Shown here one piece after another: positions 5,133-62,598 of a DNA stretch of 64,000 nt (the stretch's first letter is position 1; every line of letters begins with the position of its first letter). Position numbers and translations under genes: made by a program. This DNA is from an uncultured virus (IMG/VR IMGVR_UViG_3300037092_000074) (taxonomy: Duplodnaviria; Heunggongvirae; Uroviricota; Caudoviricetes): the IMG/VR virus record IMGVR_UViG_3300037092_000074; one strand, written 5' to 3'. A model generated the notes under the pieces. The model was not told the origin of the DNA. It saw only the letters and a program-made list of their open reading frames with translations, and did not search any database.

Positions 5133-5750
5133 ATGGGGTCACAAATGGTTCGAGTGCTCCGACGGTTGGTGCTGCTGGAGATGTCTACAAACGCGGGAGT
5201 TACTCCCATGTCGATGATCAACAAAGCCGTTCTCGTACTCAATGCTTCGTTCGAACCCGTGTCCATCTGTCGGGCCAAGAACGCGATCAAGCTCCTGGTC
5301 AAAGGGTCGGCAGTCGCGGAAGAGGATTATGGGGTCGATGTCTACCCGGGAATTCCACTTCCGTGTGTCATCCGGTTGCGGAACTACAAAAAAATACCGA
5401 TCAGGATCAACCAGCTTACGCGCCCCAACATCTATGCACGCGACCATTACCTTTGTCAGTATTGCGGGGCGAAAGAAGGATCAACCCGGATCATCAACGG
5501 GAAGCCGGTCAAGGTTATTCTGACTTTAGACCACATTCTTCCCTCGTCCCGGGGTGGTCCCTGGGTCTGGGATAATTTGGCGTCGGCCTGCCGGGAATGT
5601 AACCGAAAGAAGGGCGACCGGACACCAGAAGAAGCGGGCATGAAGCTGCTGCACGTTCCTGGCCGGTTGACCATACACACAAGCCGAATGTTGTTGAGAC
5701 TTGTGGGGCTGGAAGAGGACGCTCGGTGGGCCCCTTACTTATTTGCTTGA
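5133..5750 (+). CDS. HNH endonuclease (McrA-like, VLVLNAS family)
   Basis: VLVLNASFEP, RDHYLCQYCG, TLDHILPSSRGG..WDNLASACRECNRKKG; true start probably near 5208. Confidence 0.9.
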   Translation: MGSQMVRVLRRLVLLEMSTNAGVTPMSMINKAVLVLNASFEPVSICRAKNAIKLLVKGSAVAEEDYGVDVYPGIPLPCVIRLRNYKKIPIRINQLTRPNIYARDHYLCQYCGAKEGSTRIINGKPVKVILTLDHILPSSRGGPWVWDNLASACRECNRKKGDRTPEEAGMKLLHVPGRLTIHTSRMLLRLVGLEEDARWAPYLFA

Positions 5751-6141: not shown

Positions 6142-6218
6142 GCGGGCGTGATGCAACAGGAAGACATCTGAGGCTTAAACCCTCGGTTCTACCGGCTCGA
6201 ATCCGGTCGCCCGCACCA
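6142..6218 (+). tRNA. tRNA-Leu(TAA), short variable loop
   Basis: GCGGGCG/CGCCCGC acceptor, loop CT-TAA-AC, ACCA end. Confidence 0.85.
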
Positions 6219-6219
6219 C

Positions 6220-6295
6220 GGTCGAGTAGCTAAGACGGTAAAGCGACAGTCTGCAAAACTGTTAATCGTCGGTTCGATTCCGATCTCGACCTCCA
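6220..6295 (+). tRNA. tRNA-Cys(GCA)
   Basis: Cloverleaf, ACAGT-CTGCAAA-ACTGT, U73, CCA. Confidence 0.93.
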
Positions 6296-6307
6296 AGTTT
6301 AAGTTGT

Positions 6308-6390
6308 GCAGGTATGGCGTAATTGGCAGCCGCGCTGGTTTTAGAAACCAGTCTCTAGGGGTGGGGGTTCGACTCCCTCTACCTGCACCA
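6308..6390 (+). tRNA. tRNA-Leu(TAG)
   Basis: CTGGT-TTTAGAA-ACCAG, TTCGA, ACCA. Confidence 0.92.
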
Positions 6391-6396
6391 AGTTTT

Positions 6397-6479
6397 GCCG
6401 ATGTGGTGTAATTGGAAGCCACGCTAGATTCAAAACCTAGTCCTTCGGGGTAGGGGTTCGATCCCCCTCATCGGCACCA
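6397..6479 (+). tRNA. tRNA-Leu(CAA)
   Basis: Loop TT-CAA-AA, small variable arm, ACCA. Confidence 0.9.
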
Positions 6480-6608
6480 AATGTTGTGGGTGTCAACTCC
6501 CACTGATGACCATAAAGCAAAGTAGCCCTGCCGAAGACAAACTGTCGGTAAGTTGGTCAGAGATTGTCAACTCCTTCAACTCTGAAACAAGAGGGACGTA
6601 AGTTTCAC

Positions 6609-6694
6609 GGATCGTGGCCGGGACGGTAACGGAGCAGTTTGCTAAACTGTACAACCGAAAGGTTGAGCTTGTTCGACTCAAGCACGATCCGCCA
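6609..6694 (+). tRNA. tRNA-Ser(GCT)
   Basis: GCAGT-TTGCTAA-ACTGT, long variable arm, GCCA. Confidence 0.92.
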
Positions 6695-6738
6695 ATGTCA
6701 AGTTTTGTGCAAGGAAAAGTAGGTAGTTTTTCCTTAAT

Positions 6739-6824
6739 GGAAAGTAAACCCGGCGGGGCTGGGCACTGGCCGGAAACCAGTTGGGTCCTTCGGGACTGTG
6801 GATCGTGTTCACTGCTTTCCTCCA
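6739..6824 (+). tRNA. tRNA-Ser(GGA)-like, 8/4 fold
   Basis: 8-bp acceptor, 4-bp T stem, long D stem and variable arm, loop CC-GGA-AA, TCCA. Confidence 0.8.
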
Positions 6825-6825
6825 C

Positions 6826-6913
6826 GGACGGGTGGCAGAGTGCTTTATCGCGCTGGTCCCGAAAACCAGTACACCTTCGGGTGTCGTGAGTTGAAATCTC
6901 ACCCCGTCCGCCA
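6826..6913 (+). tRNA. tRNA-Ser(CGA)
   Basis: CTGGT-CCCGAAA-ACCAG, long variable arm, GCCA. Confidence 0.9.
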
Positions 6914-7050
6914 TGTTTGACGTGTGCCGCCGGTCGTCCGCTGTTCCTTATTCCCTTGTCAAAGGGTTGGAATATGATCCGGTTCCCCGAGCCCGGCTGG
7001 CCCTGACAAGCTCAGCAAGGTGTCGCGTAGAAGTCGGGGAGTTAAGTTTT

Positions 7051-7137
7051 GGAAAGCGCCGTCGATGGTGAGACAGCCGGTCCTGAAAACCGGGGCTCCC
7101 GCAAGGGATGAGGGATCGTTACCTTCGCTTTCCGCCA
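7051..7137 (+). tRNA. tRNA-Ser(TGA)
   Basis: CCGGT-CCTGAAA-ACCGG, long variable arm, GCCA. Confidence 0.88.
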
Positions 7138-7138
7138 C

Positions 7139-7222
7139 GCACGTAACGCGCTAAGGTAGCCAGGCTCTCTGTAAAAGAGCCCTCTTCGGGGATAGCAAGT
7201 TCGATTCTTGCTGCGTGCACCA
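7139..7222 (+). tRNA. tRNA-Tyr(GTA)
   Basis: GCTCT-CTGTAAA-AGAGC, variable arm, ACCA. Confidence 0.9.
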
Positions 7223-7303
7223 GTTTCGCACGGTAACATTTTCGATGTTATTGTGCAGTTTTCCACAAGTCCATTATCCGGACTGTGGTACAATGAAGTT
7301 TGA

Positions 7304-7379
7304 CGCCGGGTAGAGAAGCGGCCATCTCGCCATCCTCATAAGTTGGAGACCGGAGGTTCAAGTCCTCCCCTGGCAACCA
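7304..7379 (+). tRNA. tRNA-Met(CAT), initiator-like
   Basis: C1:A72 mismatch, loop CT-CAT-AA, AACCA end. Confidence 0.85.
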
Positions 7380-7383
7380 TTTT

Positions 7384-7459
7384 GCGACGGTAGCATAGCG
7401 GCAAATGTCCTTGATTGTCGATCAAGTTTACAGGGGTTCAAATCCCCTTCGTCGCGCCA
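7384..7459 (+). tRNA. tRNA-Asp(GTC)
   Basis: CTTGA-TTGTCGA-TCAAG, GCCA. Confidence 0.9.
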
Positions 7460-7464
7460 TTTAT

Positions 7465-7542
7465 GGGGTAGTTGGCAAGTTGGTTAAGCCACCACGTTCT
7501 CACCGTGGTTACGCCTCGGTTCGAACCCGAGCTACCCTACCA
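7465..7542 (+). tRNA. tRNA-Glu(CTC)
   Basis: CCACG-TTCTCAC-CGTGG, ACCA. Confidence 0.9.
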
Positions 7543-7546
7543 TTTT

Positions 7547-7627
7547 GTGGGTGTTCACATTGTTGGTGAATGTGCCCTGACTTTCAATCAGGTGATGTCG
7601 CCGGTTCGATTCCGGTCACCCACGCCA
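7547..7627 (+). tRNA. tRNA-Glu(TTC)
   Basis: CCTGA-CTTTCAA-TCAGG, GCCA. Confidence 0.9.
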
Positions 7628-7633
7628 AGTTGT

Positions 7634-7708
7634 TCCACGGTCGTATAATGGTATTATGCCTCGCTGTTAACGAGTAAGATGCGCGTTCGACTCGCGCCTG
7701 TGGAGCCA
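7634..7708 (+). tRNA. tRNA-Asn(GTT)
   Basis: TCC/GGA acceptor, loop CT-GTT-AA, GCCA. Confidence 0.9.
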
Positions 7709-7845
7709 AAATAGTCGTAACGGGCTGCGACTCTAAACACTGTGGCTAAACACCAACGGGTAAAACCTAGCAGCAAGACCTCAAAGAGAGTAGCGGGACT
7801 TACGCGCTTTGAGGCTGGGTTTTATTGAGGACCGCCAAATTTTAA

Positions 7846-7922
7846 TGGACCTTCGCCTAGCAGGTATGGCACTTCGCTCTGAACGAAGACTAAGACAGGT
7901 TCGAGACCTGTAGGTCCAGCCA
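7846..7922 (+). tRNA. tRNA-Gln(CTG)
   Basis: U1-A72, CTTCG-CTCTGAA-CGAAG, GCCA. Confidence 0.9.
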
Positions 7923-7927
7923 GTTTT

Positions 7928-8002
7928 GCCCGAGTCGTTCAACGGTAGGACCGGGGTCTTTGAAGCCCCAGACGCAGCGTTCAACTCGCTCCTCGGGTGC
8001 CA
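7928..8002 (+). tRNA. tRNA-Gln(TTG)
   Basis: GGGGT-CTTTGAA-GCCCC, GCCA. Confidence 0.85.
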
Positions 8003-8006
8003 CATT

Positions 8007-8081
8007 GCGAAGGTCGTACAGCGGCCAGTACCTCGGATTGCCAGTCCGTAGACGCCAGTTCGAGTCTGGTCCTTCGCTCCA
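8007..8081 (+). tRNA. tRNA-Gly(GCC)
   Basis: GCG/CGC acceptor, U73, loop TT-GCC-AG. Confidence 0.9.
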
Positions 8082-8207
8082 TTTTGCCGCAGGAGACGTA
8101 CGCTCCGAGGTTGCCCCCGGCCTACATCGGGGGTTGTAAAAGCCGGGGAAGCATCCGGCCCTCAAGCGGCAATGTTTCGTCCAGGTAATGGACAACATGT
8201 TACATAT

Positions 8208-8241
8208 ATGGGTCGTTAACCGACTTTAGGACCCATATATG
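8208..8241. repeat. 12-bp perfect inverted repeat
   Basis: CATATATGGGTC...GACCCATATATG just after a motif copy (start approximate). Confidence 0.7.
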
Positions 8242-8249
8242 AACCGCAA

Positions 8250-8323
8250 GCCTGGTTAGGTCAGTGCTAGACTTTCGCCTTCGTACCGCGAAGACCGGGG
8301 TTGAATTCCCCGACCGGGCTCCA
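8250..8323 (+). tRNA. tRNA-Thr(CGT)
   Basis: Loop TT-CGT-AC with C:C closing mismatch, TCCA; clustered with other Thr tRNAs. Confidence 0.8.
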
Positions 8324-8337
8324 AGTTAGGAGTAAGC

Positions 8338-9099
8338 ATGAGATTGGTTTCTCAGGAAGATTTCGATCTAGCGAAAAGTCGAGAACCCGTCCATCTTTAC
8401 TGTGATTATTGTGACGTTGATTTTATGCGCCTCAAGCACCACGCAATGAAGAGTGCCAAGAGGGGAGAAGGTTTCTGCTACTGCTCCCGAAGATGTTTGT
8501 CCAACTCTCTAGAAACGGATATTCGTCCTTGTCTTAATTGTGGGGATGATACTAAAAGTAAGTTTTGTTCCCAACGGTGTGCTGCAATTTTTAATCTTAC
8601 TGGTAAGCGTCGGTCCCCTCTAAGAGTCTGCAAAAGGTGCGGAAGAGAAACTGATAATCGACTTTTTTGCAGCAAAGTCTGTCATCGTTTGTACGAGGAA
8701 GAAAAGTACATAGAGGCTTGGCTCCTCGGGGAAGAATCGGGATTGACACCCGCCGGGGCTTTGTGTCAACAAGTACGGGTTTACCTTTACAGGACTTATG
8801 GAAAGAAATGTTCTCGCTGTGGGTGGTGTGAAGTTAATCCAACCAGCGGACACATTCCGATCCAGGTTGAGCACATCGACGGAGACTTCAGAAACTGTAG
8901 ACCAGAGAATTTGACTATCCTCTGCCCAAATTGCCATTCTTTAACTTCCACATATATGGGGTTAAACAGAGGGCGAGGACGAGATGTTGGCGGAGTTCGA
9001 CGCAAGAAAGCCGGAATAGTTCAGTTGTCAGAACCTTCCCCCGGTACGGGAAAAGCGGGAGTTAAATCCTCCCTTCCGGCTCCAAAAGATTTTAGTTGA
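8338..9099 (+). CDS. HNH homing endonuclease with N-terminal Zn-ribbon repeats
   Basis: FCSxxC repeats; KCSRCGW..IQVEHIDGD..N.RPENLTILCPNCHS; AGGAG SD. Confidence 0.88.
   Translation: MRLVSQEDFDLAKSREPVHLYCDYCDVDFMRLKHHAMKSAKRGEGFCYCSRRCLSNSLETDIRPCLNCGDDTKSKFCSQRCAAIFNLTGKRRSPLRVCKRCGRETDNRLFCSKVCHRLYEEEKYIEAWLLGEESGLTPAGALCQQVRVYLYRTYGKKCSRCGWCEVNPTSGHIPIQVEHIDGDFRNCRPENLTILCPNCHSLTSTYMGLNRGRGRDVGGVRRKKAGIVQLSEPSPGTGKAGVKSSLPAPKDFS
9010..9084 (+). tRNA. tRNA-Thr(GGT)
   Basis: TTCCC-CCGGTAC-GGGAA, TCCA; lies inside the 3' end of the HNH ORF. Confidence 0.85.
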
Positions 9100-9125
9100 C
9101 AAGCTGAAGACGGTTGTGGTACAAT
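9096..9125 (+). promoter_or_regulatory. sigma70-like promoter
   Basis: TTGACA-N18-TACAAT with TG extension. Confidence 0.65.
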
Positions 9126-9142
9126 GTCTTTAGTTGAGATTT

Positions 9143-9217
9143 GCGCCTGAAGAATACCAGAAGATTCGCCCGGCCTGTACCCGGGAGAAGGCAGTTTGAA
9201 TCTGTCCGGGCGCTCCA
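9143..9217 (+). tRNA. tRNA-Thr(TGT)
   Basis: CCCGG-CCTGTAC-CCGGG, TCCA. Confidence 0.85.
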
Positions 9218-9424
9218 TACAGGCGACACCTGCCTGGTTCTACCAAACGAAGTGGCGCGACTTTTCAACGGGGCTTCAGAGTAAACCCTGTTTCCGATTC
9301 GTCCAGGTAATGGACAGCAAGTCCTACACCGAGTACCTCCTAGAAATAGGATGCAGTGAAAAGTTGATCGTGGGCATAGCCCTTTTGCTGGCCAGCCGGT
9401 TGACCTAAAGCTCGGAAAGTTTAT

Positions 9425-9500
9425 GGCGAGGTTGGCCGAGTGGCTTAGGCGCTGGACTGTGACCCCAGTAACAGGAGTTCGAACCTCCTACCCCGCCCCA
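9425..9500 (+). tRNA. tRNA-His(GTG)
   Basis: G-1/C73, loop CT-GTG-AC, CCCA. Confidence 0.9.
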
Positions 9501-9504
9501 AGCA

Positions 9505-9581
9505 GCCGAGAAACGCGGGTTCGACTCCCGCTGGAATATGCGGTGAGTTCCGCACCATCATCTAAAGGATAGGACCTCGGC
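9505..9581 (+). ncRNA. circularly permuted tRNA-like RNA (Y RNA/YrlA-like)
   Basis: Order: GCCGAG, T arm GCGGG-TTCGACT-CCCGC, closed acceptor hairpin, D arm ATCT-AAAGGAT-AGGA, CTCGGC. Confidence 0.7.
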
Positions 9582-9596
9582 GTAAGTTTGAAATGT

Positions 9597-9672
9597 GGGG
9601 GCGTGATGAAACACGCGATCATACTACGTCTGCACCGTAGTTTTGAGGGTTGCAATCCCTCCGTCTCCACCA
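9597..9672 (+). tRNA. tRNA-Ala(TGC)
   Basis: G3:U70, CTACG-TCTGCAC-CGTAG, ACCA. Confidence 0.9.
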
Positions 9673-9754
9673 AAGCTGAGAACCGCGAAACCTGCGGCAG
9701 CGTCGTAACGTTCGGCGAGTGGTTTGACAGGGGGTGAGAGTACCCCGACTTTTT

Positions 9755-9830
9755 GCGGATTGAGCAAGAGTGGTCTTTGCGGCGGTTTGAAAAGCCGTTC
9801 AGTCCAGTTCGATTCTGGGAATCCGCACCA
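9755..9830 (+). tRNA. tRNA-Phe(GAA)
   Basis: Loop TT-GAA-AA, ACCA. Confidence 0.9.
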
Positions 9831-9831
9831 T

Positions 9832-9908
9832 CGGGGTCTAGCCTAGCGGTTTCAGGCACCTGTTTCGGATACAGGACGAGCGGCGTTCGACTCGCCGGGT
9901 CCCGACCA
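9832..9908 (+). tRNA. tRNA-Pro(CGG)
   Basis: C1-G72, CCTGT-TTCGGAT-ACAGG. Confidence 0.9.
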
Positions 9909-9915
9909 AATTTAT

Positions 9916-9992
9916 CGGGGGGTGGGCAAAAGGTTAGCCTCTCGCTCTGGAAGCGAGCTATCAAGTGAGTTCGATTCTCACCCTCCCGACCA
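9916..9992 (+). tRNA. tRNA-Pro(TGG)
   Basis: C1-G72, CTCGC-TCTGGAA-GCGAG. Confidence 0.9.
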
Positions 9993-10007
9993 TGTTAGGA
10001 AGACACA

Positions 10008-10874
10008 ATGCCGAAGAAGATTGAACTTGAGTGCTGCGTTTGTAAGAGCAAATTTCTCAAGCAACTGAAGCATTATGTGTTTGCAACAAAAGCAGGACAG
10101 ACCGAGTTCTATTGTAGTGCGGCTTGTACTAGCGAACGAAGAAAGAAGATTCCCGATAGTCCTTGTGAGTGGTGCGGGGTACTTTGTTCATACGACCAAA
10201 AATTTTGTGATTCTCGGTGCTACGGAAACAGTAAGATAGGGGTTCCTGGGGAGAAGAGAAGCGAGGAGTCGAAAGACAAACTCAGTCTGTCTTTACGATC
10301 CAAGACCAATAATCTTCCTCGACCTTGCGAAAACTGCGGGTCCGTTATTGAGAGACCCAAGCGAAAGCAAAGGTATTGTTCAATTGCTTGTTCTGGTATC
10401 GTGAAATGGCAGGACCCAGAGTTCGTAAAGAAAATTCTTGCTTCCTCGGTAGGGAAGCACCCCGGATGGCAAACTCGTCCGAAAGGTAAAGAGTCTTTCG
10501 CCGAGAGGTTCTGGAGAGAGCGTCTGGGGAGCCAAACGGACCAAGAGTACGTTCAAGAATTCAAGGTCAGAAAGAAGGAACTTGGCTCAGACAAGAAGGG
10601 CAACTACTTCTTAGATTTCTACTTTCCTTCTTTGTTGTTGGATTTGGAAGTAGATGGCCGCCAACACGACGACAGAAAAGATTCGGACCAAGAAAGAGAT
10701 CGACTACTTACCGGGGTTGGAATACGAGTCGTTCGTTATCGGTGGCCTCTCGGAAAAGACAGATTCATCAAAACTAATGAACAAGTGCAACATTTTGTGG
10801 AACTTCTGAAAGTTTTTGTACCCGTAGTTCAGCGCATAGAACGCTTCCCTGCGAAGGAAGAGGTCGTCGGTTGA
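10008..10874 (+). CDS. DUF559/Vsr-like (EDxHD-type) homing endonuclease with Zn-ribbon repeats
   Basis: YFLDFY...DLEVDGRQHD...DQERDRLL..G.RVVRY; YCSxxC repeats. Confidence 0.85.
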   Translation: MPKKIELECCVCKSKFLKQLKHYVFATKAGQTEFYCSAACTSERRKKIPDSPCEWCGVLCSYDQKFCDSRCYGNSKIGVPGEKRSEESKDKLSLSLRSKTNNLPRPCENCGSVIERPKRKQRYCSIACSGIVKWQDPEFVKKILASSVGKHPGWQTRPKGKESFAERFWRERLGSQTDQEYVQEFKVRKKELGSDKKGNYFLDFYFPSLLLDLEVDGRQHDDRKDSDQERDRLLTGVGIRVVRYRWPLGKDRFIKTNEQVQHFVELLKVFVPVVQRIERFPAKEEVVG

Positions 10875-10893
10875 AGTCCGACCGGGCACACCA
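10818..10893 (+). tRNA. tRNA-Arg(GCG)
   Basis: CTTCC-CTGCGAA-GGAAG, A20, ACCA; overlaps the endonuclease stop codon. Confidence 0.88.
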
Positions 10894-10899
10894 TTTCAC

Positions 10900-10974
10900 G
10901 GCCCCGTCGTCCAAAGAACAGGGCACTAGTCTTCGAAACTAGTTATTGCGGTTTGAGTCCGCACGGGGCTACCA
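10900..10974 (+). tRNA. tRNA-Arg(TCG)
   Basis: CTAGT-CTTCGAA-ACTAG, ACCA. Confidence 0.9.
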
Positions 10975-10980
10975 TTTTAC

Positions 10981-11050
10981 AGGGAATGATCCGAGATCAC
11001 ATCGGTCTCCAAAACCTTTTAGCGGGGTTAGACTCCCCGATTCCCTGCCA
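10981..11050 (+). tRNA. tRNA-Trp(CCA), reduced D arm
   Basis: AGGGAAT/ATTCCCT acceptor, G73, loop CT-CCA-AA. Confidence 0.75.
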
Positions 11051-11055
11051 GTTTC

Positions 11056-11128
11056 GCCGCGCACCAGAGTTTGGACAACGCCCTCATAAAGCGTTTGGCG
11101 TAGGGTTAAAGTCCCTCACGCGGCACCA
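11056..11128 (+). tRNA. tRNA(CAT) (Met or Ile2), reduced D arm
   Basis: Loop CT-CAT-AA, GCCGCG/CGCGGC acceptor, ACCA. Confidence 0.75.
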
Positions 11129-11134
11129 AGTTTT

Positions 11135-11229
11135 GCCGGAATCCTCGGGTGAGGCGTTGGGATTTATAACCCCGGCAGTTGCCAGTAGATTGCTGGTGCG
11201 CGAGGGCTCAGGCCCCTCTTCCGGTTCCA
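11135..11229 (+). tRNA. tRNA with TAT (Ile/AUA) anticodon and long variable arm
   Basis: GCCGGAA/TTCCGGT acceptor, loop TT-TAT-AA, GCCAGTA/TGCTGGT variable stem, TCCA. Confidence 0.75.
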
Positions 11230-11230
11230 C

Positions 11231-11307
11231 GGGTTGCAAGCTTTGATGGTTTGAAGCAGTCGGCTCTTACCCGACAGAGCAGGATTCGAGTTCCTGGCGA
11301 CCCACCA
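11231..11307 (+). tRNA. tRNA-Lys(CTT)
   Basis: GTCGG-CTCTTAC-CCGAC, ACCA. Confidence 0.9.
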
Positions 11308-11312
11308 GTTTA

Positions 11313-11387
11313 GGGGTGTAAGCTTTAATGCTGAAGCAACCGGCCTTTAACCGGAAGAACGGGGATGGTTACCCCGACGCCCCACCA
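11313..11387 (+). tRNA. tRNA-Lys(TTT)
   Basis: CCGG-CCTTTAA-CCGG, ACCA. Confidence 0.85.
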
Positions 11388-11388
11388 A

Positions 11389-11463
11389 GAGCGCATCGTC
11401 TAATGCAGAAGGCACTGGTCCTCTAAACCAAGAATCGGAGTTGAATTCTCCGTGCGCTCTCCA
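11389..11463 (+). tRNA. tRNA-Arg(TCT)
   Basis: TGGT-CCTCTAA-ACCA, GAGCGCA/TGCGCTC acceptor. Confidence 0.82.
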
Positions 11464-11471
11464 TAAGTTTT

Positions 11472-11546
11472 GGTCCCGTAGCTCAAAGGACAGAGCAATG
11501 CTCCCCTAAAGCAAAGATTCCGGATCGTGTCCGGACGGGACTCCCA
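11472..11546 (+). tRNA. tRNA-Arg(CCT)
   Basis: TGCT-CCCCTAA-AGCA, A20. Confidence 0.82.
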
Positions 11547-11655
11547 AGTTGCGAGAATCTGAAATCCGGGCGAACGGGATATTGACTTAGGTCGAAAGAC
11601 CTCTTCAGCCTGTCAGTAGAGATTTTCCGGTAGAAATCCGGCTCGCACAAAGTTT

Positions 11656-11730
11656 GCGCGTATAGTTCAAAGGACAGAACTCGACCCTCCGAAGGTCAGG
11701 ATGTCGGCTCGATTCCGGCTACGCGCCCCA
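11656..11730 (+). tRNA. tRNA-Arg(CCG)
   Basis: GACC-CTCCGAA-GGTC, A20. Confidence 0.88.
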
Positions 11731-11817
11731 TGTTACCTCGGGTACTTTGATGCCCAGCAGACGGTCGTAATCCCGAGGACGCTTCTTGAGAGCCGTGATC
11801 TTGAAGCTTAAAGTTTT

Positions 11818-11891
11818 GCCTGGTTAGGTTAACGATAGACTGCTACCTTTACACGATAGCGACGGGGGTTTGACTCCCTCACCGGGCACCA
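11818..11891 (+). tRNA. tRNA-Val(TAC)
   Basis: Loop TT-TAC-AC, ACCA. Confidence 0.85.
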
Positions 11892-11896
11892 TTTAT

Positions 11897-11970
11897 GGGC
11901 GACTCTTCCAATAGCAGGAAATTCCTCCGATTAAGGAATAATCACGGCGCGAATCCGTGGTCGCCTACCA
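11897..11970 (+). tRNA. tRNA-Ile(GAT)
   Basis: TTCCT-CCGATTA-AGGAA, ACCA. Confidence 0.85.
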
Positions 11971-11975
11971 AGTTT

Positions 11976-12049
11976 GCGGGCATCATCCAATGCTAGGATG
12001 CAATCCTTCCAAGTTTGTCATGTCGGTTGAAATCCGACTGTCCGCTCCA
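11976..12049 (+). tRNA. tRNA-Gly(TCC)
   Basis: GCGGGCA/TGTCCGC acceptor, U73, loop CT-TCC-AA. Confidence 0.9.
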
Positions 12050-27230: not shown

Positions 27231-27575
27231 ATGTCCAAAACATTTGACCCGTTTTTCGATGGCTACAGGCATTTGCGGCCTTTGTCTAGTGAAATTCTCA
27301 GGGACCTAGCCCGCAACGAGTGCGCCCCCCGGGACTACCGAAAGGCCGCTGTCGAATTGCTTGTAGACAGAAAGTCGCCCTTCGTCAAGCACGCGGACTT
27401 GTTCGGGCTTGTCCAGGAGTTGGAAGTAGAGTTGGATGGGATTCAGTTCGAGTTCCCTGCTCCCGAACCTGGGCCCGGGCCCCTGACCACAAGCATTACC
27501 ACAGCCACCATGTTCTCTGACGGACCATCCCAAGTAAAGGAAGAACTGAATGCCCCTCGACCCGAACCCGTCTAG
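27231..27575 (+). CDS. hypothetical protein
   Basis: GAGGA SD, 114 aa. Confidence 0.6.
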   Translation: MSKTFDPFFDGYRHLRPLSSEILRDLARNECAPRDYRKAAVELLVDRKSPFVKHADLFGLVQELEVELDGIQFEFPAPEPGPGPLTTSITTATMFSDGPSQVKEELNAPRPEPV

Positions 27576-28194
27576 CTCCGGAACCGTGTGTGTTTATGTC
27601 GCACGACACGGTCAGACCGCTTTGAATGCTTCTAACTCGTTCCGGGGGAACGCCAACCCTCCTTTGGACAAAGTAGGGATAAAAGAAGCGGGGGAACTGG
27701 CCAAGCTCTTCGAGCACGTCGAACTGTCTCATATATTCTGCTCAGACAAACAACGAGCGACGAAGACCGCCGAGATCGTGGGCAAGGCTCACGGGGCGTC
27801 CGTTCACCCAGTCGAGAGTCTTCGAGCACTAGATGTCGGAGAGTTCTCAGGACAGAAGCGCACTCCCGAGGCAGAAGCTAACCTTCAGACATATTTGGAG
27901 TCTCCGGATACTCAGATTCCCGGGGGCGAATCCCTCAATGAATTCAAACAAAGAATTGGCCCCTGTCTGCAACAAGCGGTAGAGATGTTTAGCAAAACCG
28001 GAGTTCCTCCTCTTTTAGTAGCCCACTCTTCGATTGTACATGAAGTAGGCGCACTCTTAAAGGGTGGGCATAAAAATCTCCTTGTGTCGCCTGGTGGAGC
28101 TATTGCAATTTTCTTCAACGGGTCCAAGCTCGACGCAGAGCCCATCTTCAAACCTCTGACGACTTCGAAGACCCACGCCGAAACAATCACCTAA
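27550..28194 (+). CDS. histidine phosphatase family protein (phosphoglycerate mutase-like)
   Basis: YVARHGQT, L...G...A, SD.QRA..TA, GGES, VAHS. Confidence 0.9.
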   Translation: MPLDPNPSSSGTVCVYVARHGQTALNASNSFRGNANPPLDKVGIKEAGELAKLFEHVELSHIFCSDKQRATKTAEIVGKAHGASVHPVESLRALDVGEFSGQKRTPEAEANLQTYLESPDTQIPGGESLNEFKQRIGPCLQQAVEMFSKTGVPPLLVAHSSIVHEVGALLKGGHKNLLVSPGGAIAIFFNGSKLDAEPIFKPLTTSKTHAETIT

Positions 28195-28272
28195 GCTAGT
28201 TGTCCGGATAATGGACAACGTTTTCCTCGGCATTTCCGCCGGGTGTAACCCAAATCACAAAAGGATAAAAAC

Positions 28273-28986
28273 ATGGCAAACGTTAATACTTGTGCGGGCT
28301 ATACCGCAAGCGGAACCGCCAAGAATCAATTCCCAGTAACTCAAACAGTAGCAACGACCGTTGAAACCGCGTTGCTCCTTAACACCGATGCCGGAACCAC
28401 AACTTGCTTCGTGGTTGTTCCCGGCGGCGGGTCCATTCTGGGGTCCAGCACGGGCTTGGATGTCAATGCTAACTTCGCCGTCATCGAACGCTCCGCCCGC
28501 GAATACGGGCTGCCTTCGGGAGAAACTAACGATCAATTCTCGTCCAGCAACGCCTCTGGCGCTGTCGGTTCGTGGGACGGTCGTCCGTTTAGGGTGCGTA
28601 TCTGCGGCGTAGGAACGGCGGGCCACAACGCGGCCCAGACTCTGATCTTCAATTTGTATCAGGGAACTTCTGCCTCCTTGGCCAGCGATCACGCTATCGG
28701 AACCACGGGCGCGGCTTACGCCATTGCGCAAAGTAGCTCTAATGTCAGCTTTAACTTTATGATCGAAGCGACCTTGGTGTGGGATTTGACCTCCGGCGTT
28801 CTGACCGGAAGCTACACGTCCAACATCGCGGGAGGCACCACGTCTCAATTCACAGGTCCCACAGTTGTTACGAACGTTGTAGGCTCTATGACCAGCGCAA
28901 CTCTGTCTTTCCTCGCCTCCGTAACTCTCGGCAACGCCGCCTCCAGCACTATCTCGATTCGGGAATTTGTGGTGGACAAGCTCTAG
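28273..28986 (+). CDS. putative virion protein (paralog family)
   Basis: AAGGA SD; SWDGRPFRVRI shared with 29021. Confidence 0.65.
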   Translation: MANVNTCAGYTASGTAKNQFPVTQTVATTVETALLLNTDAGTTTCFVVVPGGGSILGSSTGLDVNANFAVIERSAREYGLPSGETNDQFSSSNASGAVGSWDGRPFRVRICGVGTAGHNAAQTLIFNLYQGTSASLASDHAIGTTGAAYAIAQSSSNVSFNFMIEATLVWDLTSGVLTGSYTSNIAGGTTSQFTGPTVVTNVVGSMTSATLSFLASVTLGNAASSTISIREFVVDKL

Positions 28987-47181: not shown

Positions 47182-50100
47182 GTGCCAGATTATAGCATAT
47201 ACGGATCGGGAGGCGTTTCGGACGGCAGAGGTCCCTCGTCCGGAAACTCTTCTTTGGGGTTAGAGACTGCTGTTAGTCCGAGTCCGTCGGATTCTTCTGC
47301 ATCAAAATACTCCATCTACGGATCGCCCTCCCCCGAAGCTAGTCCGGATAATGGACAATCCTCTGTGGCCCCTTCCGCTCCTCAGCACACCTACCAAGAC
47401 GAGTCTCAGCCTTGGTACAAACGAGCCTGGGACTACGCAAATACACCAATCACTTCCTCCCTCTTCGGCCTGCCCGAGGAAAGACAAGGGGCTGGCGGGT
47501 TTGAACGCGGAGTGGAGCACATCGCGGCTGGGCTCACAAGTCCTCTCAGTTTGGCTTTAGGTGCTGCCACCTTCGGCACTGGTGGTTGGATCGCTGGGGC
47601 GGGAGAAACCGCGCTCAAAGAATCCGGGGAGTTTACTGCCGCCGAAATTGCCGACGCGATAAAAGGTTCCAAAGCCGCCCTACAAGCCGCCAAGAGTGTG
47701 CCTGCTATCGAGCCGGTTATTGGCAAAGCCTTGGCTGAAGCCGGGCCTGAGCTACCGAACTTGGTGGAACGGGCCAAGGAAGTTCTAGGTCCTATAGACC
47801 GCAGCGCGGAGTTTGGCGAACCCGAAGTTCAAAAAGCCTTACTCGCCTCTGGAAAGTTCTCAGAACCGGAGCTTGCGGACCTCACCAAAGCCAGCCAGAC
47901 GATCCGGAACGCCAAGGAGGGGTTCGCCCCCATCGACGACGCTGTCCGTGCCTCTGGAGCCGATGTAGCCAACTGGAAACGGGCCCAGGCTTTGCTGTCC
48001 AAAAACGGCTTAGACGAAACAAGTGATCTTTTGGGGGGGCACCTGCTCGAACGCGGAGCCTTCCAAATCATTAGAAAAGCCGCCCCCGACATTCCTGTCG
48101 CCGGGGCTGTTCGTGCTGCCAAAACGGCAACCGAGGTTATGCAGGCCGGGTTCACCTACCAGCAGCTTGAAATGGCGGCCCAAATGTCGCCCCGGTTCTT
48201 CGACGCCCTGAAAGAAGGGGACTACGACCATGCGATGGAGTACGGCACGGAAGCGGTGCTCTCTGGTGGCATGGGTGTCTTGGGAGCTTCCCACGCTTTG
48301 CACACGGCGGGAGAACTCTTCAAGCCCCTTTTGGGCTCCGAGGAAACCCCAAGATTGTCCGACCGTTGGCTGGCAGTGGAAAGGGCCAACAAAGAGCGGG
48401 AGACCGCTCACGCGGTCGCGGAGCAGCACGGAATCAACATCCAATCCGAAGCCATGAAACGTTTGGGGCATGAAAACCCCAACCCCGTCTTCGGAGACAA
48501 ACCGGAAATCAAGGCTCAGAAGCAAGCCGACCTCACAGACCTCGCTCTGTGGACGGAAACTCACCAAGGAGACGCGGGGAAAGCCAAGGCCATAGATTCC
48601 GCTCTGTGGAAAGCCGAAGGTCGCGCCCCGGAAGAAAGTCCATTATCCGGACTTCCCCAGGTGGGGACCCCTCTAGCTTCTAATGAAGTTCCCCTCCAGG
48701 CGGGGACCCAAGCCGTAGGAAGCACTTCGTCTGGTGAGGTTCGTGTGGGGGCAGACGGTCGTCCTGTTGTTTGGATCAGTCCCGCAGATTGGGACATCTT
48801 CGAAGCTATCACCGGACAGCCCGGCACGGGAGTAAATTACTCTCCGGCAGAGGCTGATCGTCTACTAAGTCGCTTCAATCCTGAAAGTTCAATCGGACAG
48901 TTGATTTCCCAAGCTCGGAAGATAGCAGGCCCAACGGCTGTCCTTAAAGCACCAGGGAGCAATCCTGACTTCACGATCAGAGTTGCCAAGGAAGAGCTTC
49001 ATCACACATGGCAGAGAGAACTTGCCACAAACGGAGAGATAGAAAACCATCTTAATCGTCCCCAATGGAGAAGATTGTATGATATAATACCCCCAGGACA
49101 GACAGCAGAACTCGACCGTTTGGGATATAACCAAAAACCAATTGTGAGAGTAGCAGAGACTGCGGCCAAGTTTAGGGCTGGTATTGTTCCCCCGGGAGTG
49201 TCGGACGAGGAAGTCCTCGGCTTCTTAAAGGAGTACCGCAAAGAAGTTGAATCCAAACATGGAAAAGACGCTTGGGAAGACCCCGGCAACATCAACAACG
49301 TGGCAGCACAGCACGTAAAGGACATTTATGACAAACGAAGAGCAGGACAAGTATCTGCCAATGGTGGGCTGGCCAACAACGCAGCAAACCAAGGATTGGT
49401 GGGAAGCGTCGGGCAAGGGGGACGCGGAGCACCTAGCCTACATCAAGAAGGCGCGGTCGGAGTACGAGGCAAAACACCCGAAGGTCTAGCCTCTCGCGTC
49501 CGGAAACTGGACGAAGAACCCTTGTCCTTCGCTTCCCCGAACGTCCATAATCTCGGTGGAATAGACGACGCACAACAGCGCCTCGAATCCCGGCCCCAAA
49601 AGATCGCCGAGAAACTGTCGGGAGATTTAGCCTCCTCCCTGAAAATCAAAGCCTCCGTGCGTCCTGCCCTTGGTCATTGGGAAGGCGGCGCGGAGAATTC
49701 TGTTTTGGGACGCTTCGCTCCCGGCACAGACCCAGACGCTGTTGAATACCACAACGCTTTGCTGGCCAAAGCTGGGTATCAAAATGCCGGAGCCGGGTTT
49801 ATCCCAGGAGAAGGTAAAGACGTGCTGTTCCAATTCCGAGTTTCGGATGGGGCCGCAAGCACCAAGCAGATCGCAGAAGTTCTGGAGCAACACGGAATTC
49901 CAGGGGATACAATTGAACCCATTCCCGGGGGAAACCTTGTCCACATCGTCGGAGCAAACGGAGAATTTCGTCCGCAAGTCAGCGAAATCGCGGCGCGTCT
50001 CGGCGCGGGAAAAGTAGGAGAAATCTATGGCAGAAAATTTGAGAACGGCGACTACACAGACAGGGACGCCGCCCAATCCGCTTTTGACCGCAGGCTCACC

Positions 50101-53100
50101 GAACTCGAAGTCAAGCACCCAGAATGGCGTGGAGTTCGTCAAGCTTTCGAATCAAGGCCCGATCACGTGGAGCTTTCAAGGCTCGTCCGGGAAACCAAGT
50201 CCCCGTTCGTAGAAGGGGTCCACGGATCGCGTACCCCCGGAATCTCCACCCTAACCCCTGAGACAGATGTCAAGGGTCCGCAAAAAGGGGCGCAAGAAGC
50301 CAGGGCTAAAGCCTTTCCCAAGGACTTTGTAAAACGGACATACTTCCGGGAAGAGGGTTCGCACGGAGAGCCCTTCTACGAACACATGCCATACCAGTAC
50401 AAAGCTCGCATGAATGCGGAAAACTTGTACGACTATGTGGATGACCCTGACCACTTACTACAAGCGGCATACAAAGAGGCGGCAGATCGCAAAATATCCG
50501 GGCAACCCGGAGCTATTGGAACAATCTACGAACGCCTAATGCGCGACTCCGGGTACGAAGGTTACTATCACACAGGAGCCCGGGAGATTGGTGCATTCAA
50601 AGATACGCAGGTCGAGGCCAAACTCCAAGCACAAGCCAGTGGCCGTCCATTATCCGGACAACTCGCTTTTGGTCTGGCCTCCGGCGAAAAACCGGCAGAG
50701 TGGGAAGACATCAAGCCCCATCTTACCCCGGAGGAAGTCCAGAAACACGATACTCCCGAGAAGCAGAACCTGCTCACAGCCGCCTTTAACTCCATGCCCA
50801 ACCACGAAGAGTGGACCGCCGCTATCCGGGCGGGCCGGGCGGGGTCGTTGTGGTATGAAAGATCGACTCGGGCTTTTGACGCTCTGATCGACTCCGGAAT
50901 TCCGTGGTTGTGGAAGGCGGACAAAGAGAAGTTCCTGAACTTCACCGCTGCTCTATCTCCCGTACAACCCGTTCAAGCCAACCTGCGCATGGCGCTAAAT
51001 CTCTGGGCTAAGTGGGATAAAGCGGGCCGCCCACAAGACGTTACATGGAAAGATGGAAAGGTCTCCAGCAAGAATGCTTCGCTCTACAGAATTCTCGCCG
51101 GTCGTGGAGACTCTCAGGGAGTAGACCTTCCCGCAAGAATGGGCAACGCAATCCGCGCCCTACAGGGAGAACCTCTGTCTGGCCCCAAGGTATCTTCTTT
51201 CACCAAGAACCTGGGCAAAGACGCCTCTCGGGTTACGAACGATACCTGGATGGCTGTATTTGGGGCTCACGATCCAAACCGGATTAACAAACCGGCAATT
51301 TACGATTCCATGTCTGCCAAGGTCCGCGAAGCGGCCAAGGCGGAGGGCGTAGAACCTCGCCAGGCCCAGGCCGCAATCTGGTGCTTCATCAAATCCCTGG
51401 CCGAGTTGTCTGGCTGGGGGAACGACCGCTGGATACCCCCGCAAGAAATCATCAAGCAAGGCTTGCTCACGCCCGAACTTGTAGCTCAGCACTCGGCGGA
51501 CTTTGCGGACATGCTCAAAACCGACCCCGAAATCCGGGGAGTAATCAAGAAACTTGGAGGAGACCTCAATGCCCTCGACACAAAACTCGAAACCTACGTC
51601 CCAAGAAAGCCTATCACGGGAGAAGCTCAGGAGCCTGCTACTCACCTTCTTAACGCGGCTGACAGACTCGAAGCCTCCCGCAGAGACTCGCGGGTAGCTT
51701 CACACCTCGCCCGCAAGCAAGGACCCTCGTTATTCGACACAGAATTCGGTCCGGATAATGGACTGTTCTCACGCGAACGTATGCCCGACTTCATAAAGCA
51801 AGCTGAAGAGAGGGGGGATAAGGACGATCCTCTCATCGCTGGATGGAAAAAGATACTGCGTGGCCACGAACTGTCTCCAGAGGAAAAGCAAGAAGTAACC
51901 AACCAAGCAAGCAAAGACTTGTCTGCTTTTATCTACCAGCCGCACCCCAACGACTTGGATACTCTTTGGACGAAGCAGCAGGCTAAGTACCTTTCCGAGC
52001 ATCCCGAAGAGGCTGCTTTCAGAAAATCGGTCATAGAAAAGTTCAACCCCGGAGCCTTGGCAAAGTATGGAGTCTCTCCCAATAAACCCCTAGCTTCCAG
52101 AGAAAGTCCGGATAATGGACTGTTTTCCAAAGAGAGGGAAAATACTCCGGAGTTCAAGTCCTTCTTCGGAGATTGGACTAAACCGGACAAGGACAGCGTG
52201 TCCAAAGTCGTGGACCAAACCGGGCAACCCAAGGTTGTTTATCACGGAACCAAAGGAAACTTCACTGAATTTCGTGTAGACCCAAATAATGCTCACAGCC
52301 CCTACGGTTTTTACTTTACAGATTCCCCGGAATATGCTGGAAAATACACGGCCAACCGAACAGGCGATAACATCATGCCCGCGTATGTTCGGATTACCAA
52401 ACCTGCTTCTTGGGAAGAGTTCAAGCAAGCAATTCGTGCGGACCGGACCAACGGGGTAAAGAACCTCCAAGCAAAGGGGTACGACGGCGTAGTTGCTAAG
52501 CAGAGCGAAGAGTGGGGAGGAATTCCCATTCCGAATGACCCAAATGTGTATGTAGCCTTTTCCCCGAACCAAATCAAATCTGCTATAGGAAATCGCGGCA
52601 CCTTTGATCTCACAAACCCCAACATGCTGTTTTCGAAGGAGCGCGAAAACCAAGCACCGCAGTGGTACCTGAAGTCCAACCAGCTAGTTGACTCCCGGAT
52701 GCAAGGGCCTATGCCCGCAGACACCGTCCGGAAGATGCTGGAGAACAACGGCGTAAAACCAGACGAACTAAAATACACCGGCCTCTCAGACTTCCTCCGC
52801 GAGAAGGGGAAGGAACCCGTGCGTCCGGAAGAAGTCAAGGACTACCTGGCCGCGAATAACCTTCAGATACAGGAGGTGACGAAAGGACAAAACCTTTCTC
52901 GCATAGACCAAATTTCTCAAAGCTTGTATGGACGACCATATTCCTCCCTTGAAGAAACCCCCCGAGAAGTAGTTGATCGAGCCGCATCTCGGTGGAAGGG
53001 AGATGGAGAAGAAGAGCAGAGAACCAAATTCGGCACCTACACCCTCCCTGGTGGTGAGAACTACCGAGAGTTGTTGCTGGCCCTTCCTGACTCCCGCGAA

Positions 53101-62040: not shown

Positions 62041-62598
62041 TCATTGTGTTCCTTTCTGAAGGAGGGCCTTCCCTTTACATTTCGGGCAGGAATAGCCGTC
62101 TCTGTGCATCCACCCTTCCATCAATCCGGTTCCGTCGCACATATCGCAATACTCCTGTCCATTATCCGGACTTCGGTGCTCGCGGAGATAATCGGCTGCC
62201 AGTTCGAGGATCGCCGAGTCGTCCCGAAAGAGAATCATAGCGCGATTGCATCGGTGGCACAATAAACCTCGGACAGAGGCCCGCTTCAGTTCTTCCTTTA
62301 CTTTGGTCAGCGCCTCAGACTTGGTTCTGTATTCAAGGGCTTCGTACTCCGCGCCGTTGTATTCGGCATAAGCGTTCCAGATTTTGCCGCATTTATTGGT
62401 TTTGATCTTGATCTTTTTCCACTTGTGGTCGTGGTCGATATTCAGCCGTCTGGTCCCCGGACCCTCGCCACAAACGGCACATCCACCCGCCTGCTCGACG
62501 AACTGCTCGTTATACCAGTCGAGGCCGACTCCGTAGGTTTTCTTGAGTCGCAGGTCGGTAGCGCGGTCGAGTTGTGCTTGGGTCTTTGGTTTGGTCAT
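62041..62598 (-). CDS. endonuclease VII-family nuclease
   Basis: KTYG...Y.....Q.G.CAVC, IDHDH, VRGLLCHRCN, F.D....L..A..YL. Confidence 0.85.
   Translation of the reverse strand: MTKPKTQAQLDRATDLRLKKTYGVGLDWYNEQFVEQAGGCAVCGEGPGTRRLNIDHDHKWKKIKIKTNKCGKIWNAYAEYNGAEYEALEYRTKSEALTKVKEELKRASVRGLLCHRCNRAMILFRDDSAILELAADYLREHRSPDNGQEYCDMCDGTGLMEGWMHRDGYSCPKCKGKALLQKGTQ

Follow-up and report, generated by a model that had tools for sequence, protein, structure and literature searches.

Background

The pair between residue 19 of the D-loop and residue 56 of the T-loop, G19-C56, is taught as an invariant of transfer RNA (tRNA) architecture and as a docking platform for RNase P, the ribosome and T-box leaders. 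In this paper we describe an array of tRNA genes in a 64,000-nucleotide stretch of DNA from an uncultured tailed virus (IMG/VR record IMGVR_UViG_3300037092_000074; Caudoviricetes), hereafter called the window, in which about a third of the genes have this pair exchanged for another Watson-Crick pair. The available sections of PMC4810234 describe the flat face that the 19:56 pair exposes as the part of the elbow used by RNase P, the L1 stalk and T-box leaders, and add that protein L5 makes contact with the pair in the P site. Compared with the canonical elongator tRNA (RF00005, and the available parts of PMC4810234 and PMC7912444), the window tRNAs share the cloverleaf, the 7-nt T-loop, G18, U55, G53-C61 and an encoded CCA, and at the outer face of the elbow their bases 19 and 56 likewise form a Watson-Crick pair. 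They differ in that 19:56 is C-G, A-U or U-A in 11/34, and several carry C33, A54-U58 or a base other than U at position 8.

The closest described cases are of two kinds. Sporadic exchanges occur in tRNA-Ile(GAU) of phage T5, tRNA-Arg(CCG) of the Tunturiibacter phage Tunturi 5 and tRNA-Arg(CCU) of Terriglobus; these resemble the window tRNAs in that the exchange is compensated and biased towards Arg, but non-C56 tRNAs make up 1/25, 2/40 and 1/47 of those sets, whereas here they make up a third of the set, occur in every version of the array and include all three alternative pairs. Phage tRNAs that are insensitive to nucleases, as described in the available sections of PMC10264068 and PMC12445682, likewise form large sets that depart from the host type at conserved positions, and the C33 loops of the window lie in the region that those papers discuss; the published changes, however, fall at known cleavage sites of the anticodon loop or stem, and none in those sections is at the elbow. 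No paper on swapped elbow pairs in phage tRNAs was found in a search that left subscription journals largely uncovered, and the older tRNA literature may hold single cases; searching by the pair names A19-U56, C19-G56 and U19-A56 returned only a paper on transfer-messenger RNA.

Methods

tRNA genes were called with ARAGORN, the Rfam covariance model RF00005 (gathering score 29 bits) and folds. On the array ARAGORN gave 28 tRNAs at its default threshold and 30 at ps95, with four further credible tRNAs at ps80. Position 56 was taken as the third base of the 7-nt T-loop, and position 19 as the base that follows the sole possible G18, given the allowed lengths of the variable D-loop stretches; the base at 56 was not consulted in this step, and pair statistics use only tRNAs with one possible G18 position. 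A MAFFT alignment of 26 window tRNAs misaligned the D-loops, and the G18-based numbering and a gapless subset were used instead.

Relatives were found in IMG/VR by searching with two proteins encoded near the array and with the HNH endonuclease gene that heads it. The viral control was a haphazard sample of 80 viral-contig loci seeded on the canonical T-arm, from which tRNAs of the seed type were excluded, and bacterial and archaeal contigs were sampled by the same seeded design. A Terriglobus genome served as a stand-in for a possible host phylum.

Results and discussion

Eleven of the 34 credible tRNA genes in the window carry a T-loop base other than C at position 56 (non-C56, or swapped, tRNAs) together with the complementary base after G18, the pair being C19-G56 in seven, A19-U56 in three and U19-A56 in one. 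All are on the plus strand. The C19-G56 genes are tRNA-Ser(CGA) at 6826-6913 (C6843/G6893; D-loop AGTGCTTTA, T-loop TTGAAAT; C33), tRNA-Thr(CGT) at 8250-8323 (C8267/G8303; Rfam 47.3 bits), which has the same pair in the other three of the four arrays first compared, tRNA-Ala(TGC) at 9597-9672 (C9616/G9652; 41.2 bits), with a pyrimidine at 57 in its T-loop TTGCAAT, tRNA-Arg(GCG) at 10818-10893 (C10835/G10873; 58.0 bits), the 5' end of which is overlapped by a DUF559 frame, tRNA-Lys(TTT) at 11313-11387 (C11331/G11367; T-loop ATGGTTA with A54...U58; C33; A8-U14), tRNA-Arg(TCT) at 11389-11463 (C11406/G11443; C33; 42.9 bits) and tRNA-Gly(TCC) at 11976-12049 (C11993/G12029; 49.3 bits). A19-U56 is found in tRNA-Thr(TGT) at 9143-9217 (A9161/T9197; C33; A8), the copy of which in the related array L004 is identical, in tRNA-Arg(TCG) at 10900-10974 (A10917/T10954; 51.2 bits) and in tRNA-Val(TAC) at 11818-11891 (A11835/T11871; 48.5 bits). 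The single U19-A56 gene, tRNA-Thr(GGT) at 9010-9084 (T9028/A9064; C33; 55.7 bits), stands directly behind an HNH gene. A first-pass annotation had named these eleven tRNAs and the three pair types, and each of them is present in the sequence at its place.

All eleven form an ARAGORN cloverleaf with a 7-bp acceptor stem, a 7-nt anticodon loop and a 7-nt T-loop, and nine are recovered at the default threshold. G18 and T55 are kept in 11/11 and the G19-C56 identity in 0/11, and T54 and A58 are present in all except tRNA-Lys(TTT), which has A54 and T58. Eight pass the Rfam gathering score (41.2-58.0 bits), within the range of the canonical window tRNAs. Among the other three, tRNA-Ser(CGA) is missing from the gathering-score list, while tRNA-Thr(TGT) and tRNA-Lys(TTT) need a lowered threshold to be called by ARAGORN and yield no Rfam report even at E<=1; the acceptor stem of each of the three is 7 bp long, and CCA is encoded. 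The minimum-energy fold of tRNA-Lys(TTT) is a cloverleaf (z -3.5), and the D arm is weak in the fold of tRNA-Thr(TGT). Parts of the array are matched by contigs from RNA libraries, although contigs cannot prove transcription, ends or strand, and stretches that lack such contigs are uninformative.

The numbering of the D-loop is critical to the claim. Six of the swapped tRNAs, Thr(CGT), Thr(GGT), Arg(GCG), Arg(TCG), Val(TAC) and Gly(TCC), are among the ten for which the Rfam alignment was printed, and in each the covariance model makes the same 19/56 assignment, lining up base 19 with the second G of 'UGGU' and base 56 with the C of 'UUCgA'. A D-loop of 7 nt leaves no freedom in numbering, and in 20 distinct tRNAs of this kind, aligned without gaps, 19:56 is paired in 20/20 (A-U 7, C-G 7, G-C 5, U-A 1), and the neighbouring contacts are near constant, with G-C at 53:61, G-U at 18:55 and U-A at 54:58 each in 19/20. 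The Rfam alignment, the D-loop logic and the gapless alignment thus uphold the 19/56 assignment.

The four arrays first compared hold 71 tRNAs with a single possible G18, of which 69 are Watson-Crick at 19:56, and all 38 of the non-C56 tRNAs among them carry the complementary base at 19, a result equalled in none of 100000 permutations. Extending the comparison to nine arrays gave 275 distinct tRNA sequences, 171 of them with a single G18. Here 164/171 are Watson-Crick at 19:56 (G-C 76, C-G 38, A-U 35, U-A 15), seven are mismatched or wobble, and the non-C56 tRNAs are complementary in 88/88; one additional non-C56 tRNA, Arg-TCT of L004, is ambiguous between G-U and A-U. The proposal that the changes are compensatory and reflect selection rather than decay is borne out by these 88 tRNAs and by the 20 of the gapless alignment. 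As judged from the gene sequences, the changes at 19:56 are real and compensated, the predicted Watson-Crick geometry is kept in 11/11 swapped tRNAs of the window, and what selection holds in this lineage is the pairing of 19 with 56, not the identity of the bases.

Swapping is typical of the whole phage lineage, a group of peat-soil phages of about 100 kb. The counts of non-C56 tRNAs are 11/34 in the window, 10/30 in L004, 11/36 in L011, 7/27 in L013, 8/29 in G003, 11/31 in G004, 16/34 in G005, 11/34 in G006 and 6/24 in G007, so that 26-47% of the tRNAs are swapped in the eight related arrays, in partly different isoacceptors. Elsewhere the canonical pair is indeed close to universal, as the first-pass annotation had assumed, and the comparison of 19/56 frequencies that it had proposed shows swaps to be far rarer in other phages and in the sampled bacteria, the host being represented by stand-ins. 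The viral control has 5/404 non-C56 tRNAs, all five compensated, or 8/348 at a relaxed threshold, two of which are apparently false calls. Fourteen unrelated phage arrays of at least 12 tRNAs hold 0-2 swapped tRNAs each at the relaxed threshold, and the small bacterial and archaeal sample has 0/46. Terriglobus has 1/47. In the cultured jumbo phage Tunturi 5, for which the available text of PMC11924767 reports 43 tRNA genes, two of 40 regular calls are non-C56, namely Arg(CCG) with U19-A56 and a tRNA-Phe that reads U19-G56, and T5 has 1/25, its tRNA-Ile(GAU) with A19-U56. A scan seeded on a G56 T-arm gave nine loci with a tRNA seed, eight of which hold one or two swapped tRNAs while the ninth belongs to this lineage. 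Sporadic compensated swaps are therefore widespread at about 1-2%, and it is the density near one third that is special. ARAGORN may under-detect tRNAs with unusual T-loops, but such an effect is too small for the 15- to 25-fold gap to the controls.

The single Terriglobus sp. exception (G002, L492-type locus) is a tRNA-Arg(CCT) with C19-G56, D-loop AGTTGCATA and T-loop TTGGACT, and is that genome's only non-canonical elbow.

Swapping is unevenly spread over amino acids. Across the nine arrays it is highest in Thr (16/22) and Arg (21/32) and lowest in Leu (4/33), Lys (1/17), Phe (0/10), Asn (0/8) and Met (0/5), counts that share ancestry and are not phylogenetically independent; Arg is over-represented among the sporadic swaps of the viral controls, Tunturi 5 and Terriglobus as well. 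From the four arrays it had seemed that the swap was excluded from Leu and other class II tRNAs, perhaps through synthetase contacts, an idea that was dropped when swapped tRNAs for Leu, Tyr and Ser turned up in the five arrays added later, so that the distribution over amino acids is a gradient without strict exclusions.

The sister arrays differ in which tRNAs are swapped. Among those compared, the window alone has swapped forms of Gly-TCC, Val-TAC and Ala-TGC (Gly-TCC being canonical G19-C56 in L004, L011 and L013), and Glu-CTC, Gln-CTG, Trp and Ile-GAT are swapped in sister arrays instead, while Thr-GGT has U-A, C-G, C-G and A-U across four arrays. When same-anticodon tRNAs from different arrays were paired and binned by falling stem identity, the base at 56 differed in 0/9, 5/13, 3/18, 28/66 and 20/56 pairs, and stem pairs were changed on both sides at frequencies of 0.01, 0.13, 0.25, 0.41 and 0.57 in the same bins; the frequency of differences at 19:56 is thus close to that of two-sided change in a stem pair. 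Matched changes within the lineage can be seen directly in Gly-GCC, which is G-C in the window and L004 and A-U in L011 at 90% stem identity, in Arg-ACG (U-A versus C-G, 84%) and in Trp-CCA (U-A versus G-C, 80-82%). The Lys-TTT of the window and the L011 tRNA of the same anticodon have the rare A54-U58 T-loop in common and differ in having C-G and G-C, respectively, at 19:56.

Exchange of whole genes also contributes. The genes that flank the array are 91% identical to those of L004, while within the array some tRNAs are 97-100% identical, Thr-CGT and Thr-TGT being fully so, and others are unalignable, which argues for the replacement of single tRNA genes in a mosaic array. Spread of a single swapped clade by duplication was tested and not borne out, since most of the swapped tRNAs have a canonical tRNA for the same amino acid as nearest neighbour; the one apparent pair of paralogues among them is Val-TAC and Thr-CGT, with 72% identity between their stems.

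The elbow pair is not the only conserved feature that varies. C33 replaces the near-universal U33 in 11/35 window tRNAs (among them Ser-CGA, Thr-GGT, Thr-TGT, Ala, Pro-TGG, Lys-TTT, Arg-TCT, Arg-CCT and Ile-GAT), as against 15/503 in unrelated viral tRNAs and 0/47 in Terriglobus, and six of the eleven elbow-swapped tRNAs have it. T-loops with A54...U58 (ATCGTTA, ATGGTTA, ATCGTGT) occur at 7051-7137, 11313-11387 and 11472-11546 and in the doubtful gene at 6743-6824, and look like swapped versions of the T54-A58 reverse Hoogsteen pair; they are found in 4/35 window tRNAs, 16/404 viral controls and 0/46 of the bacterial sample, and C54 is present in 3/35 window tRNAs. In tRNA-Ile(GAT) (11897-11970, plus strand; D-loop AATAGCA, T-loop CGCGAAT) A18 and G55 replace G18 and U55 and position 54 is C, while G19-C56 is kept and the gene folds as a cloverleaf. 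The 8:14 pair was considered as a further special change and rejected, its variation being about equal to that in control phage tRNAs. Because C33, A54-U58, C54 and A18/G55 also vary, the tRNAs appear to be generally loosened or altered, not changed at the elbow only.

The best explanation of these observations is that the eleven genes encode working phage tRNAs in which the outermost tertiary Watson-Crick pair of the elbow has been exchanged. The 19:56 pair turns over about like an ordinary helix pair, the pairing being selected while the bases drift, and the exchange proceeds by two routes, namely matched substitutions within one gene and the replacement of single genes in a mosaic, endonuclease-ridden array. 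Any Watson-Crick pair would preserve the flat stacking face of the elbow, and for this reason readers of shape such as RNase P and the ribosome should accept the swapped tRNAs, whereas readers specific for the base G19 or C56 would not. That swapped-elbow tRNAs can work is suggested by the A19-U56 tRNA-Ile of T5, a CAU derivative of which acts as an amber suppressor according to a note in its GenBank record. We rank first, with a probability of roughly 0.6, the view that the high frequency of swaps reflects a loosened constraint on the identity of 'universal' bases in redundant, recombining and fast-evolving phage tRNAs. This cause is the most likely one and at the same time the weakest step of the explanation, and the swapping is probably not a dedicated counter-defence.

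Several observations weigh against a plain loss of constraint. It leaves unexplained why 26-47% of the tRNAs are swapped here, compared with 0-2 per array in 14 unrelated arrays and 2/40 in Tunturi 5, and the spread is uneven, from Thr (16/22) and Arg (21/32) to Leu (4/33), Lys (1/17), Phe (0/10) and Asn (0/8). To arrive at C19-G56, the commonest derived state, takes two transversions with no wobble intermediate on the way, and mismatched or wobble states are few (7/171). A gene of the RNA-ligase family in 3/3 near-complete relatives would fit a conflict over tRNA, and the expression, processing, charging and modification of the swapped tRNAs are themselves predictions. Adaptive readings stay alive because of the strong lineage effect, the bias to Thr and Arg and the frequency of the double-transversion C-G pair.

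Chief among these is the tentative idea, which we consider unlikely, that the identity of the elbow, along with U33 and T54-A58, is changed to evade a host nuclease, sensor or T-loop modification enzyme that reads bases, the pairing being kept so that the tRNAs stay usable in translation. The enrichment (11/34 in the window against 5/404) and the prominence of Thr and Arg would suit it, since the available text of PMC12445682 names tRNA-Thr(UGU) as the chief target of P2-OLD, from which cells are rescued by tRNA-Thr genes of phages, and resistance to nucleases through changes in the anticodon loop has been argued for phage tRNAs (PMC10264068, available sections). C33 is enriched in the same tRNA set, the RNA-ligase-family gene recurs in the relatives, and C56 is a stated determinant of m5U54 2-thiolation in Thermus (PMC7912444, available sections). 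However, the change affects no more than about a third of the tRNAs, and in sister phages the affected third is another one; the pair types are spread as in a helix pair and do not converge on one escape state. The elbow readers named in the first-pass annotation stack on the pair and do not read its bases, as far as the available text of PMC4810234 goes, documented resistance maps to the anticodon arm in the available parts of PMC10264068 and PMC12445682, and elbow, T-loop and D-loop go unmentioned in the available text of these two papers and of PMC13056530 and PMC12851939, four papers in which no elbow-directed defence nuclease appears. The escape from a host nuclease or sensor that the first-pass annotation had suggested has no direct support, and nothing that we found points to a particular nuclease or sensor. 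A bolder form, which we regard as doubtful, has the lineage purposely diversify the elbow pair together with U33 and T54-A58, so that its tRNAs would fit RNase P and the ribosome and go unrecognised by a host factor that depends on reading G19 or C56. Candidates for that factor would be an immune nuclease directed at tRNA, a sensor, or a modification enzyme that sets a mark on which a defence relies. If true, this would be the first immune evasion at the tRNA elbow, and the array would provide orthogonal elbows of natural origin.

Selection at the DNA level is ranked third and seems improbable. It supposes that a T-loop change resists cutting or conversion by a homing endonuclease, that the D-loop then follows, and that the resulting alleles spread as cassettes with endonuclease genes. 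On this view tRNA arrays attract homing endonucleases, and their near-identical T-arm sequences invite recombination. This array is a mosaic of single-gene cassettes, and three endonuclease genes lie in or at it, all on the plus strand. An HNH endonuclease gene at the head of the array (5133-5750) is kept in place in all relatives at 67-85% identity and is 45% identical to gp292 of Tunturi 5, which is itself inside the tRNA array of that phage. An HNH-type gene (8338-9099) is inserted between Thr-CGT and Thr-GGT and its frame runs over Thr-GGT, and a gene for a DUF559 protein (Vsr-like endonuclease fold; 10008-10874) inside the array runs into Arg-GCG, so that both internal frames enter the next tRNA gene and both times that tRNA is swapped. 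The HNH gene at 8338-9099 and the window-type Thr-GGT are jointly absent from L004, and also from a variant that joins 8325 to 9095, seen in one RNA-library run and one DNA run. The HNH-like and DUF559 genes look like homing-endonuclease traffic, and comparable arrangements exist in T5, the GenBank record of which has four HNH genes in the tRNA region, two of them overlapping tRNA genes, and in Tunturi 5, where an HNH gene lies between Thr-CGT and Thr-GGT. Yet Tunturi 5 and T5, with such genes, have only two and one swapped tRNAs, and most swapped tRNAs of the window do not adjoin an endonuclease gene; 3/5 of the endonuclease-flanking tRNAs are swapped against 11/34 overall, numbers too small for a test. 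No cleavage site is known for these enzymes, and the HNH gene at 8338-9099, which occupies the same slot between two Thr tRNA genes as gp292 and was examined as a possible relative of it, proved to be unrelated.

It is very improbable that the phage tRNAs mirror an unusual host in which swapped elbows are frequent. The one cellular C19-G56 tRNA, Terriglobus Arg-CCT, and the fact that this is a peat phage, the nearest cultured terminase relative of which (25% identity) infects an acidobacterium, can be cited in its favour, but the stand-ins for the host have only 1/47 (Terriglobus) and 0/46 (mixed bacterial sample), the acidobacterium-infecting Tunturi 5 has 2/40, and sister phages differ in their swapped tRNAs, which is unexpected from copying a host. 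An artefact of wrong numbering or decaying pseudogenes, to which the failure of Rfam to report Thr-TGT and Lys-TTT at E<=1 and two degenerate tRNA-like genes in the same array might point, is hardly credible and is refuted as far as sequence analysis goes by the numbering fixed through 7-nt D-loops and Rfam alignments, the complementarity of 88/88, the intact acceptor stems and encoded CCA, and the identity of Thr-CGT and Thr-TGT in L004.

Swapped elbows are thus a real and textbook-bending variant of a known molecule. A lineage with a third of its tRNAs swapped, always in matched fashion, is a natural mutagenesis series, and suggests that translation and processing need the 19:56 pair and not its bases. 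The matched variants of Gly-GCC, Arg-ACG and Lys-TTT are ready-made for finding which cellular factors read the bases. If a host defence or modification enzyme discriminates between them, the view of phage tRNAs as nuclease-resistant spare parts, now centred on the anticodon arm, would come to include the elbow; if none does, the near-universality of G19-C56 in cells would be held by something beyond what the translation core requires.

The window comes from the genome of a tailed phage, and its genes include those for a large terminase, for a portal or adaptor protein and for a major head protein. Its closest cultured terminase relative is Tunturiibacter phage Tunturi 3, at only 25% identity, and many peat metagenome runs hold near-identical DNA; the closest record, G001, is a 28.8-kb fragment with the same array. 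Searched against cultured phages, the array had no megablast match, and distant blastn gave only short matches to single tRNA genes. A scan of metagenome contigs with an alignment of a neighbouring protein returned one 1.3-kb fragment only. The order of amino-acid blocks is similar between the window array and that of Tunturi 5, an unrelated jumbo phage.

The array extends from 6142 to 12049 on the plus strand, as delimited by ARAGORN, Rfam and folds. Its 34 credible tRNA genes all have an encoded CCA, 24 tRNA matches reach the Rfam gathering score, and the credible tRNAs called only at ps80 (Ser-TGA, Thr-TGT, Lys-TTT and Ile-GAT) have 7-bp acceptor stems as well as the encoded CCA. To these are added one doubtful Ser-GGA-like tRNA at 6743-6824 (ARAGORN and fold) and two degenerate tRNA-like genes recognised by fold, one with anticodon CCA at 10980-11050, in the place of Trp in relatives, and one with anticodon CAT at 11056-11128, all on the plus strand. 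In both degenerate genes the acceptor and T arms are perfect and CCA is encoded, but the D arms are stunted; their T-loops have A56.

No tRNA-modifying or tRNA-processing enzyme was found in the 46 window frames scanned, nor in the 80 of 127 frames scanned in the complete relative G005, save for RNA-ligase-family and Ro60-like proteins. The RNA-ligase-family gene (PF09414) is at 80007-80546 in G003, 103524-104027 in G005 and 89747-90070 in G008, the three near-complete relatives, in a region that corresponds to a part of the genome outside the window. The Ro60-like gene (TROVE and vWA domains) lies between the HNH gene and the array in G005, at 27370-28752 (L456:7370-8752), and was found in 2/5 relatives searched, the other being G010 (62327-62587); it is absent from the window. 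A 3179-aa frame at 47182-56721 on the plus strand, with 'ADP-ribosyltransferase in polyvalent proteins' and DUF7178 domains, is probably a giant polyvalent virion or injected protein, and a match to the type-P5 twister ribozyme lies on the minus strand at 433-490 (Rfam 41.9 bits against a gathering score of 37.6).

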